A stretch of DNA of 63,279 nt, the filler included, from Stramenopiles sp. TOSAG23-6 (Eukaryota), in the NCBI GenBank assembly GCA_900128565.1. It is 3 parts of 3 records of this genome, joined end to end, with 100 filler letters (N's around TTAATTAATTAA, not from the genome) between each part and the next. Parts side by side here need not be neighbours in the genome. Positions count along the whole stretch, not along the records: positions 1 to 21,172 come from LT636030.1; 2 more parts are not named here. One strand, written 5' to 3'. Numbering within the stretch: position 1 is the first letter of the stretch; each line of letters starts with the position of its first letter. Shown piece after piece: positions 1 to 3,000 of the stretch. The position numbers were made by a program, and so were the translations under genes. The notes under the pieces were generated by a model. It was not told the DNA's origin. It worked only from the letters and a program-made list of their open reading frames with translations, and did not search any database.

Positions 1-3000
1 TAGGTACAAAATTTCGTATGAAAAATAAATTCGATTTTTTTGTAAAAAAAAAAAATAAAACATACATTACCTTCAGATTGAAGAAGACCGCGCTCTTCAG
101 CAGCAGCTGCTGCTGCAGCTACAGCATCTTCTTGAGTTCCTCCATTTGAAATAATATTTGCAAATGCATCAGCTCCTGCTTTAACAGCACTACTTCCTGA
201 TTTTTCATACATGTATTGCGAAAAAATATTTTTTTTGGGTACAATATGTTTTTTGTTAGGCACAAAAATGTTTTACAAAAAAAAACTTGAAATAAATAAT
301 GAAGACATGCGTCTAAAAAAAAATTATTAGATACAAAATTTCGTATGAAAAAAAACAAATTAAAAAAAAATAATGAAAACAAACATCTTTGAAGGGAATA
401 TACTTTTTACAAGCATTTTCAATTGACTGAGTTCAACACCATCTGAATAAGCAAAAGATATAAATCGCCTCGCATCCGAAGGATCTAAAAATAACACGTA
501 TTGTGAAAAAATATTTTAAAAATTTGATTTTTTTTGTTAGGTACAAAATTTACTACGAAAAAACAATTAATTCCGAAATTCATGATGAAAACGCACACAC
601 AAAGTGACTCATTTCCATCACGACCAGCTCGACCTACTTCTTGGACATATCCTTCAACAGATCTAGGCATATGAAAATGAATGACTGCTCGAACATCACT
701 TTTATCAAGACCCATACCAAATATATTTTGGGAAAATATTTCAAAAATTTTATTTTTTTTCGTTAGGTATAAAATTTCGTACTAAAAAAACATTTAAAAA
801 ACCAATTATGACAACGTACATGCAACTGTTGCTACTATACAACGCAGTCGACCTTCCATGAATCGTGACTGAGTTTTTGCTCTAGTAATTGTAGGAAGAC
901 CAGCATGTATTTTGGAAAAATATTTCAAAAAAAATCTAATTTTCTTTGTTAGGTACAAAATTTCGTACGAAAAAAATTCATATAAAAAAAAAACATACAT
1001 GATATGCCGCAGCATCAATACCACTATTCTTTAATAAATCAGCGATTGAATCCGCATCTCTTTGTGATTTTACATATACGATTGAACATTGCGATTGACC
1101 TTTAGATCCTTTTTTAGACCGGTCGCCCGCTAATTTGGGAATTTTTAACAATTCTCGAAGAGCGTTATATCGATCTGAACAAGCAACGACACGAAGGTTC
1201 AGATTCTTTCGGTACCATCTTCGTCGTCGTGTAGCCGTTGAAGACAAATTTAGACATTTTTGTAAATCGGATACACACTTTTTTGTTGCTGTCGCTGTTA
1301 ATGCTAATATTGGAGGATTCCCAAATAATTGACGAATGTTATCTCCTAATCGAAGGTAAGCAGGTCGAAAATTATGCGACCACTGAGAGACACAATGCAC
1401 TTCATCAACAACGATAAGACCAATAGGTCCAAGCAAACCTTCTCGAACAAGTCTGCGGAAACTGCTACTCATTAATCTTTCTGGCGATATAAAAAGAACA
1501 TCAATAAGTCGATCTCGAAGTCCTTTCATCGTCCATGCAGTATCAGTAGGTGATTGTTGTGTACTCAATGAAGCACCTGTGATCATTGATGGTAATTGCC
1601 TCATTTGATCCATCATCAACGATACTAAAGGAGAAATGACTATAGAAATACCCTTACCAGATTGTAAAAGTGTAGGAAATTGGTAACAGAGGGATTTTCC
1701 TCCACCTGTAGGTAAAAGTAATAAAGCAGATTTCCCTTTCAAAACTCGTCGCACAGCCCAAAGTTGGCCTACACGGAATCCTGAAAACCCCCAAATACGT
1801 TGAAGTACTTCTTGGTACAAGTGATAATTACACCGCAATTCTTCAGAATCATGATCCTCAAACCACGACCATGTTTCATCTTGGGCAAGTTTTAATCTTT
1901 TTTGAAGAGTTACTTTACTACCACTGGTAGTACAGCTGAGGCGCCTCAATTCCCGTTTTAATTCAACAGAAAGCATCATTGCTCGCGTCTTTGCCCACCA
2001 TTGTTGTTTTCCACAAAGTTGTGAAATGTCTTCTATATCACATGTTTCATCGTCACTGTCATCAACTACTTCAGATATATTGTTCATTTTCTTTTTATTT
2101 TCCATCGAATTTTTGGATGTTTTGTTTTGTTTTGACTTGGAAACCTTTTTAGGTAATGCTGGCATTGACAAAATATCGGAAACGCTTTTCCAATCAGATT
2201 CGTCTGCCCACATGAAAGTATCGCAATGTTGACCATACGGCATCGAACAACCGTAAAATTTACGGCCTTTATTATTATTTTTTTTTTTTACTTTTCGCAA
2301 TTTGCATGGTAATCTATGACCTGCACATAAAGGAATTGCAAAATCTTCTTTTAATTTCTGCTTTAATTTTGATATTCGATTTGTTGATGATTTTGTTTTT
2401 GTTTCATTTAATTTTGTAGTTTTATTACGTTTTATAGATGTTGTTGAAGATTTTGTTTTTGTTTCCTGATTTTGCAATTCACTCTGGTTGAAAGACAAAA
2501 TTATATCTTCTTCTACAATTGTAGCCTCTTTTTCTAAATTTCTTATTTCGTGATCTTCTTCAGCATAAAAATCTCGTTCTTCATCTTCAACTGCGATAAA
2601 AAAATCTACTTCATCTTTTGATTCAATATGTTCTACATGTACTACATTTTCTTTTGATTCAATATGTTCTACATGTACTACATTTTCTTTTGATTCAATA
2701 AGTTCTAGACACAAATCTACTGCATCGATTCCACTACCTCTACTTACACCAATTAGGCTTTCCATTTTTTCAGTTGAACGTTTTTCAAATTCAAGTTTTT
2801 GAGCTTCGCTTTCTTTGATACCTCTTTCATACTGAGAGTGTCTTGGTAAAAATCCCTGACGTCCTGTTGATCCTCTCCTTCCTGGTCGCCCACCTTTTGT
2901 TTGTTGTTTCCAACGACGTTTCAAATTCAATCGAACAAAATTTTCATTATTCGCTTTTTTTCGTTTTTGATTGTTTTTCCTGGATAGTTTTGAAAATTTG

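Follow-up and report, generated by a model that had tools for sequence, protein, structure and literature searches.

The intron at positions 905-998 (minus strand) of a 63,279-base stretch of the Stramenopiles sp. TOSAG23-6 assembly, hereafter called the window, is probably one member of a single family of short introns of the spliceosomal type, which has spread in the manner of introners and whose 3′ splice site is not AG. The window is made up of three contigs of a draft assembly containing Ns, joined by artificial six-frame-stop linkers (N44-TTAATTAATTAA-N44) at 21173-21272 and 42287-42386, and all counts given below refer to these 63 kb. The intron at 905-998 is 94 nucleotides (nt) long, runs from GT to AT in phase 0 with the flanks ...GCGGCATATCAT / GCTGGTCTT..., and interrupts the helicase C region of a RecQ-family helicase gene at AAYH|AGLP.

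In total, 39 complete and 3 truncated introns were curated, and they apparently constitute the whole intron complement of the window as one homologous family. A profile built from 24 clear copies recovered about 42 copies, the matches spanning model positions 1 to 98 in most of them, and the host genes belong to unrelated Pfam families. Intron lengths ranged from 87 to 174 nt (median, 99 nt), with 35 of the 39 between 87 and 111 nt. The introns contain 19% G+C and 49% T on the sense strand, versus 36.5% G+C elsewhere in the window. All 42 copies were in the sense orientation relative to the host gene (two-sided binomial p=5e-13). Introns of other kinds were not encountered in the window, although open reading frames (ORFs) without homologues may contain some. 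The family sequence coincides with the whole intron, and the flanks share only YAT|GT. Similarity extends up to both boundaries in a single orientation and does not enter the exons, as in the operational definition of introners by Gozashti et al., and it is not due to gene duplication or to a transposon lying inside an older intron.

From 5′ to 3′, the introns consist of GTAYGTTTT, a 5′ box that varies between copies (about half have CATNATGAATTTC, and others have a T-run), a T-run, C(R)TA(C/G)NAAATTTTGTACCTAAC, an A/T-rich spacer and (G/A)AAATATTTTT(T)C(C/A)(A/C)AATACAT. When one mismatch was allowed, the 5′ end GTAYGTTTT was present in 36 of the 39 introns, the 3′ block ATATTTTT in 34 and the terminal AATACAT in 35. 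The branch-like box TACCTAAC was exact in 24/39 introns, and a TACCTAAC-like box was found in 34/39; after it come a T-tract and the conserved 3′ box, which is about 20 nt long. The distance from the presumed branch A is 32 to 48 nt to the 3′ end (median, 40.5 nt) and 49 to 128 nt to the 5′ end (median, 58 nt).

A preliminary description of this DNA had proposed that introns in unrelated genes form one repeat family with three shared motifs, and that observation was confirmed. The first two motifs occurred far above chance at up to three mismatches in the window, with 12 matches against 0.03 expected for GTAYGTTTTCATNATGAATTTC and 23 against 0.01 for CGTANNAAATTTTGTACCTAAC. The third, as literally written, matched only once at the same threshold because of a 1-nt length difference between two 3′ subtypes; the block itself, seen as ATATTTTT, is real. 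The prevailing length of 87 to 111 nt, the uniform sense orientation and the lack of unrelated introns in the window all held, and a profile and orientation check of the kind it had called for, run within the window, returned about 42 copies, all sense and none intergenic. Its suggestion that the long motifs are splicing signals also agreed with the data insofar as they behave as conserved signals: conservation was blocky, near 90% in the signal blocks and near 50% in the spacers, and selection on the signals is therefore evident. The most unusual point had been understated, namely, that the 3′ splice site is AT and not AG.

Boundaries were set by the family motifs alone (|GTAYGT ... AATACAT|). 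On the first pass, 35 of 38 |GT..AT| junctions defined in this way lay inside long ORFs on both sides, and two of the rest are real exceptions; the 39th intron (20562-20713) likewise keeps the frame across its junction. Intron lengths fall in all three classes modulo 3 and thus cannot be explained by read-through. The 5′ termini were GT in 37/39 introns, GC in one (20079) and AT in one (52518), and the 3′ termini were AT in 35/39, GT in two, AG in one (12665-12802) and CA in one (10748-10846). Removal of the introns left protein domains contiguous. Thus, the HSP70 exons map to the adjoining Pfam positions 2-268, 273-328, 329-459 and 462-547, and the exons of the MCM P-loop region map to Pfam positions 54-83, 86-116, a micro-exon, 122-164 and 167-224, the gap at 117-121 being filled exactly by the 13-nt micro-exon (M-VLAD). 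This contiguity rules out GT-AG introns ending at a nearby AG, since the nearby AGs would delete conserved residues of HSP70 and MCM5. For 9 of the 38 non-AG introns, there was no in-frame AG at all within -30 to +45 nt.

The position of the 3′ cut relative to AG dinucleotides was also informative. In two MCM5 introns, an AG located 4 nt (11225-11335) or 7 nt (12146-12240) upstream of the junction is skipped. For its part, the sole AG-ending intron (12665-12802) ends in ACAATGTAG, equal in length to the usual ACAATACAT, which suggests that the cut would be placed relative to the upstream box. The exon flanks have a consensus of their own, YAT|GT(A), at both junctions: the upstream exon ends in AT in 24/39 cases, against a background AT frequency of 9.4%, and in GT in 8/39, and 25/39 downstream exons begin with G and 15/39 with GT. 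The figures for the upstream exon ends, as well as the occurrence of both GT-ending introns after exons ending in GT, reproduced exactly those reported before. This flank consensus mirrors the classical AG|GT proto-splice site, with T replacing G.

Conservation of the termini bears on the register in which the introns are read. In the GT..AT register, G+1 was conserved in 38/39 introns, T+2 in 38/39, A-2 in 35/39 and T-1 in 37/39, whereas in a register slid by 2 nt (AT...AC), A+1 was present in only 25/39. An AT-AC register as a general rule was rejected on account of these poorly conserved termini, although individual introns may be read in this way. Given the near-invariant bases at all four terminal positions, we take GT..AT as the rule for these introns, a reading drawn from terminal conservation and not from chemistry.

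The similarity among the copies exceeded what shared signals alone would produce. Pairwise identity of the 39 copies averaged 70% and reached 94%, in comparison with a maximum of 83.6% under column shuffling, and 20 pairs were at least 85% identical, versus 0.19 expected (0/2000 shuffles). When only the variable columns were considered (43 of the 98 profile columns; mean identity, 48%), 3 pairs were still at least 85% identical, versus 0.003 expected. Polymorphisms of the 5′ and 3′ blocks, approximately 70 nt apart, were linked (mean r2, 0.070 versus 0.039 +/- 0.010; p=0.007), and the 5′ type was associated with the 3′ type (p=0.009), the CATNATG type with CACAAT and the T-run type with CCAAAA. 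Strings specific to the spacers, such as TTTCGGAATT, were common to introns of different genes. There is hence genealogical, subfamily structure among the copies, as seen with differences in degeneracy between copies uncontrolled, and descent from at least two subfamily masters, which predicts both the similarity and the linkage, is the origin to which these sequence comparisons point. The distribution of the introns was in line with it. Phases were nearly uniform (14:11:14), 8 of the phase-2 introns splitting an ATG codon; only 13 nt separate two of the introns, and in one case two units occur in tandem. MCM5 carries 12 introns in 2.2 kb of coding sequence (10009-13464), versus 1.67 expected (p=2e-7), and all the introns of the RecQ gene lie within its last 1 kb, while there are none in ORFs of 1323 and 1143 codons (21394-25362 and 15173-18601, respectively) and one, at the 5′ end, in an ORF of 1543 codons (37639-42267). 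Phases, close spacing, the tandem unit and uneven density fit insertion better than inheritance.

Several observations weigh against the interpretation given above. Continuity of the ORFs cannot separate GT..AT from the register slid by 2 nt (NN-GTA..TAC), since at most one codon is altered, and the slid reading is synonymous in 3 of the 6 introns that end in AT after an exon ending in GT. No joint corresponding to an exon-exon junction appeared among the metatranscriptome joints listed; those listed linked different copies (cross-mapping), and the RNA contigs listed lay within exons, giving no support either way for the predicted junctions. The two irregular introns (10748-10846 and 52518-52615) may be assembly errors or use alternative sites. 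As to copying, column shuffling ignores unequal degeneracy among copies, a possible source of part of the excess of similar pairs, and the linkage between the 5′ and middle regions, and between the middle and 3′ regions, was not significant. Signals take up about half of each intron, the remainder being T/A-rich sequence of low complexity, so that part of the 70% identity is convergence. Coupling of the 5′ and 3′ boxes through their function is possible, although no pairing that would explain it was found. Finally, introns of the same gene were no more alike than others (p=0.35), a result that also rules out local duplication or gene conversion within genes.

Two other origins for the family must be considered. 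That no copying took place, and that old introns shrank in a streamlined genome and converged on long obligatory signals, seems rather unlikely to us. Such convergence needs the 5′ 9-mer, a branch box of about 20 nt, a 3′ box of about 20 nt and T-rich spacers all to be obligatory signals of the spliceosome. It would account for the blocky conservation (about 90% in the signal blocks and near 50% in the spacers), for the 43 of 98 profile columns that vary with a mean identity of 48%, for copies that are exclusively sense and genic, for the resemblance of YAT|GT at both junctions to an exonic splice-site consensus and for the lack of greater likeness among introns of one gene. It is at odds with the rejection of the column-shuffle null, variable columns included, with the long-range 5′-3′ linkage, with the spacer strings common to introns of different genes, and with the uniform phases, the introns 13 nt apart and the crowding in MCM5. 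Less probable still is a MITE-like introner (MITE, miniature inverted-repeat transposable element), as the preliminary description suggested. On this reading, insertion of the element GTAYG...ATAC at (C)AT(G) would duplicate AT, and the intron would take its final two bases from one of the two AT copies. The exon and intron ends are identical in 25/39 cases (AT/AT, 23; GT/GT, 2), GT-ending introns follow GT exon ends (Fisher p=0.038, resting on 2 introns), the junctions CATGTA and TACATG are reverse complements, and in algae, introners are known that have 4-bp duplications and co-opt a splice site (bioRxiv 10.1101/2022.06.06.494994). Nevertheless, about 22 such matches are expected from the independent consensus of exon and intron ends, 14/39 introns lack the match, and there was no excess at position -3; there is thus no clear excess that would indicate the AT/GT target-site duplication (TSD) proposed earlier. 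The inverted repeat inside the element is GTA/TAC (3 nt; 3 to 4 nt at most), plus T4-A in 11 of 30 copies, the rest of the CATGTA/TACATG palindrome being exon flank, and the terminal inverted repeats (TIRs) of about 10 bp or more that characterize MITEs were not seen. Over 30 copies, the ends were complementary in 83% of cells, no more than in shuffles, with 0 compensatory changes. Of the 42 copies, none was intergenic, although ORF spans leave 13.5% of the window uncovered (p=0.002), and none was antisense; selection in a compact genome could also remove such copies. Neither both orientations nor an autonomous partner, as known of MITEs, was observed in the window, and no longer element with the same ends was found within these 63 kb. 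The MITE reading is therefore weak: of the earlier interpretation, which is partly supported, the introner-like subfamily structure stood and the MITE anatomy did not.

Searches in metagenome and viral contigs added no further members. No relatives were found with MCM5 exon 1, the 18-nt family core gave 7 loci, all of them chance matches without the family, and a gapped pattern of the core plus the 3′ block gave 11 loci in viral contigs, none of the family. Outside genes, the window has family-like sequence only at 53629-53773, where tandem repeats of 23 to 28 nt have a unit, GTATACGAAWTTTYATACCTAA (minus strand), that resembles only the pre-branch and branch core of the introns. Close to it, at 53542-53573, 5.3 interstitial telomere units of the TTAGGG type occur in a convergent intergenic region.

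With regard to splicing, the sequences carry the features of U2-type introns except one: a 5′ GT with an extended consensus, a branch box upstream of a T-tract and restored ORFs are all present, while a terminal AG is found in 1/39 introns. The consensus GTATGT / TACTAAC, with a T-tract, is a hallmark of the U2-type introns of intron-poor eukaryotes. U12-type introns have the 5′ site RTATCCTT and a branch box, TCCTTAAC, located 10 to 26 nt from the 3′ end. Splicing by a transformed spliceosome of the minor (U12) type, which is known to tolerate GT-AT and to choose the 3′ site by distance, is very improbable here. The box CCTAAC resembles the U12 branch consensus, and the 3′ terminal bases vary (AT, GT, AG and CA) while their distance to the upstream box is kept; moreover, GT-AT is documented among U12-type terminal pairs as rare but open to splicing by the U12 machinery (PMC1557818). 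Against this stand a 5′ site of GTAYGTTTT instead of RTATCC, a distance of 32 to 48 nt from the branch to the 3′ end and a T-tract before the 3′ site. Rfam detected no small nuclear RNA (snRNA) in the window, U11, U12, U4atac and U6atac included, an absence from the window that carries little weight; no Rfam family matched the introns either. The least credible of the alternatives is non-spliceosomal excision guided by end pairing, euglenid-like, as had been suggested earlier, or by a staggered RNase III-like cut and ligation, with a helix CAU|GUA / UACAU|G setting two cuts 2 bp apart. In the consensus, 5 pairs can form between the ends (83% of cells), the helix appears in the minimum-energy fold of 3/8 copies, and genomes with non-canonical introns whose ends pair are known from Amoebophrya (PMC7789003) and hemistasiid diplonemids (PMC12621601). 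Yet the paired fraction equalled that of shuffles, the covariation check proposed for the folded alignment yielded 0 compensatory changes, RNAalifold predicted 0 pairs, and z-scores of single folds, ranging from -1.7 to +1.8, did not reach significance. In addition, the conserved GTAYGT and TACCTAAC are classic spliceosomal signals, whereas the other end-pairing systems (euglenid, diplonemid and Amoebophrya) lack conserved termini and show extended end pairing, which these introns do not. A hairpin before the branch box (GTACGAAATTTTGTAC) was likewise considered and rejected, as RNAalifold gave no consensus structure and there was no covariation. Excision at the DNA level, as in ciliates, was ruled out by the sense orientation of 42/42 copies, the boxes of spliceosomal type and DNA contigs that run from exon into intron; one seawater DNA contig reaches 24 nt from the exon into the intron at 34193-34282.

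Under the interpretation that we favor, a spliceosomal family spread by copying, the introns would be removed by a U2-type spliceosome acting on a yeast-like 5′ site (GTATGT plus TTT) and a TACTAAC-like branch box with one extra C. Recognition of the 3′ site would have shifted from AG to AT, the site being probably positioned by the conserved 3′ box or by the distance from the branch, since AGs 4 and 7 nt upstream are skipped and the AG-ending intron is cut equally far from the ACAAT box. The family would have arisen by introner-like copying from at least two subfamily masters, its three signal blocks being kept by purifying selection, and the copying was more likely RNA mediated, or otherwise restricted to genes, than carried out by a classical DNA transposon with TIRs and TSDs. 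A spread that is gene restricted, sense only and without TSDs or TIRs would resemble, by analogy, the reverse splicing proposed for fungal introner-like elements.

Comparison with known systems showed several partial likenesses. Fungal introner-like elements have GT-AG termini. They are alike in being gene restricted and in lacking TSDs and TIRs, they are interpreted as RNA based and spreading by reverse splicing (bioRxiv 10.1101/2022.06.06.494994), and they differ in numbering from a few tens to about 500 among >10,000 introns (PMC3879977). The introners of marine algae (Micromonas IE-A to IE-D, Symbiodinium, Chrysochromulina and others; IE, introner element) are also many near-identical short introns in unrelated genes, spliced in sense, with similarity ending at the boundaries and hosts that are mostly aquatic (PMC3879977; bioRxiv 10.1101/2022.06.06.494994; PMC12130899). 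These introners, however, use canonical splice sites, and thousands of unrelated introns are resident alongside them (in Micromonas CCMP1545, about 6,100 IEs versus 4,300 resident introns; PMC3879977), whereas here the 3′ end is AT and 39/39 introns belong to the family; several of them have clear 4-bp duplications and/or inverted repeats, in contrast to the weak evidence for TSDs and TIRs in this family. The marine protist Amoebophrya (Syndiniales) has mostly non-GT-AG introns, and it has repeated intron families with inverted repeats at their ends and direct repeats of 3 to 5 nt overlapping the boundaries (PMC7789003). Its introns differ in having no consensus terminal dinucleotide, many diverse families and hairpins of 8- to 20-nt inverted repeats, and U1 components are missing, while the introns of the window have uniform GT..AT termini, keep classic 5′ and branch boxes and show marginal end pairing. 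The introns of intron-poor eukaryotes of the yeast type (GTATGT / TACTAAC, with a fixed distance from the branch to the 3′ end) likewise combine an extended, conserved 5′ site with a TACTAAC-like branch box and constraints on the 3′ architecture (PMC2483917), but they end in AG and cannot be aligned to each other over their whole length. Rare animal introns, such as that of U2-type DGCR2 and non-canonical U12-type introns, have the same GT-AT termini and were shown to be spliceable; they are single cases (7 U12-type GT-AT introns among four species) with a different 5′ and branch consensus (PMC1557818). Finally, tunicates (Fritillaria and relatives, with about 95% non-GT/AG introns; PMC13326754) and the non-conventional introns of euglenids and hemistasiid diplonemids (PMC12621601) represent genome-wide departures from GT-AG with the spliceosome retained, although their termini are variable and they are not known to have a single family or a conserved branch box of this kind. 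Full-text searches, with subscription journals and supplements outside their reach, found no description of a GT-AT-dominated genome or of this motif set, and none of the closest known systems combines a uniform non-AG terminus with a single family making up all introns.

The remaining introns are distributed along the window as follows. On the minus strand near its start, a family intron is cut by the window start (1-65; 5′ end at 65) and is followed by a composite intron at 211-384 (174 nt, GT..AT). The latter contains two tandem family units (311-384 and 211-310) arranged head to tail without an exon between them, the first without the usual 3′ box and the second with a degenerate 5′ end, and either it is spliced as one 174-nt intron or the units are twin introns. 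Also on the minus strand lie a GT..GT intron after an exon ending in GT (496-596) and a GT..AT intron in RecQ Helicase_C (721-819; VATVAF|GMG), and a GT..AT intron was found in a poly(A)-polymerase-like gene (5434-5520, plus strand). The 12 introns of MCM5, all on the plus strand, begin with the irregular intron 1 at 10748-10846 (GT..CA, or TA..AG by a 1-nt shift) and a GT..GT intron after an exon ending in GT (11019-11118). Nine end in AT: 11225-11335, 11407-11506, 11606-11706, 11800-11895 (without a clear branch box), 11909-12012 (directly before Walker B), 12146-12240, 12486-12586, 12941-13068 and 13159-13263 (exon ending in GC), all with GT at the 5′ end; the remaining one is the sole GT..AG intron of 12665-12802. 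The micro-exon at 11896-11908, between two family introns, encodes part of GAMVLADGG before Walker B.

A gene for a transporter of the major facilitator superfamily (MFS) contains, on the plus strand, four GT..AT introns (19427-19533, 20338-20434, 20562-20713 and 20840-20935), the third of which reaches 152 nt by expanded T/A repeats, and the GC..AT intron at 20079-20175. On the minus strand, GT..AT introns were found at 29669-29764, 29844-29937, 31552-31638, 32089-32182, 32348-32436 (94% identical to that at 32089-32182) and 50395-50499, in the VPS53 gene at 34193-34282, 34348-34455 and 34515-34617, and in the HSP70 gene at 56316-56407 (IPPM|LRGVPQ; Pfam HSP70 459|462), 56812-56919 (Pfam HSP70 328|329) and 57090-57187 (exon ending in CGT). 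On the plus strand, the intron at 52518-52615 runs from AT to AT, with A at +1, and an in-frame GT 9 nt upstream provides an alternative 5′ site; GT..AT introns follow at 61589-61687 (exon ending in AA), 61802-61899 (exon ending in TA, without boundary ambiguity), 62241-62334 and 62929-63021. Family introns are cut by the N linkers at two contig ends, at 21059-21172 (plus strand) and, as a 3′ half, at 42237-42286 (minus strand), as expected if the repeat breaks the assembly.

The host genome is gene dense, since ORFs of at least 150 codons cover 86.5% of the window, whose G+C content is 35%. Two small sequencing runs of 2015 contain 92 to 97% of a 9.2-kb test stretch, and seawater metagenomes of a 2024 study contain 19 to 43% of it; two metatranscriptome runs contain about 10% of the sequence words. 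When two seawater metagenomes were mapped onto the window, contigs of up to 2.2 kb matched with few differences, and the organism or a near-identical strain therefore inhabits seawater. The summed contig depth of intron-containing bins was hundreds- to thousands-fold higher than that of neighboring exon bins in four runs (two seawater DNA metagenomes and two metatranscriptomes), a depth that does not equal copy number; the intron family is very abundant in community DNA.

Other features of the window were also recorded. The 1323-codon ORF without introns (21394-25362, plus strand) encodes N-terminal ankyrin repeats and C-terminal UvrD-type helicase domains. At 25647-26858 (minus strand) lies a gene with Sel1 repeats and a MYND finger, whose internal repeats keep a 265-codon ORF open on the opposite strand (26028-26822, plus strand); its repeat is probably multicopy, given that metagenome contig depth is raised over 25647-26858. 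At 42414-42950 (minus strand), a eukaryotic 18S rRNA gene runs into the contig end and is represented by its 5′ part of about 540 nt, matching Rfam SSU_rRNA_eukarya at model positions 34-538 in two pieces, with a protein-coding gene about 1 kb away. A single ORF of 904 codons at 45737-48448 (minus strand) joins a lycopene cyclase domain (residues 18-429) to a domain of the fatty acid desaturase type (residues 610-848); this fusion within the carotenoid pathway hints at an organism that is pigmented or makes retinal. The 12-mer TTAATTAATTAA recurs at 51861 as natural intergenic sequence and is no contig linker there. The window contained 0 tRNAs.

The 3′ AG is among the most conserved signals of eukaryotic gene expression, and the few genomes known to break it (tunicates, euglenozoans and Amoebophrya) have variable, signal-poor termini. 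We tentatively propose, as a possibility that still falls short of likely, that the rule has changed from AG to AT throughout this genome, with the 3′ cut set by a box of about 20 nt or by a ruler, and that all introns derive from one introner of about 100 nt that replaced the ancestral introns. If this is true, gene finders based on GT-AG and introner screens would be blind to both features: gene prediction with GT-AG would fragment or mistranslate most intron-bearing genes of the lineage, and annotation-based surveys of introners would miss the family. If the snRNAs coevolved with the introns, the U1 5′ end would be complementary to CAU|GUAYGU, and the branch-binding sequence of U2 would be complementary to UACCUAAC. 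A uniform GT-AT genome with yeast-like 5′ and branch boxes would constitute a natural experiment on the second catalytic step and on 3′ site recognition of the U2AF/Prp8 type. Should the whole intron complement belong to one family, it would be the most extreme introner invasion described and would bear on the origin and turnover of introns.

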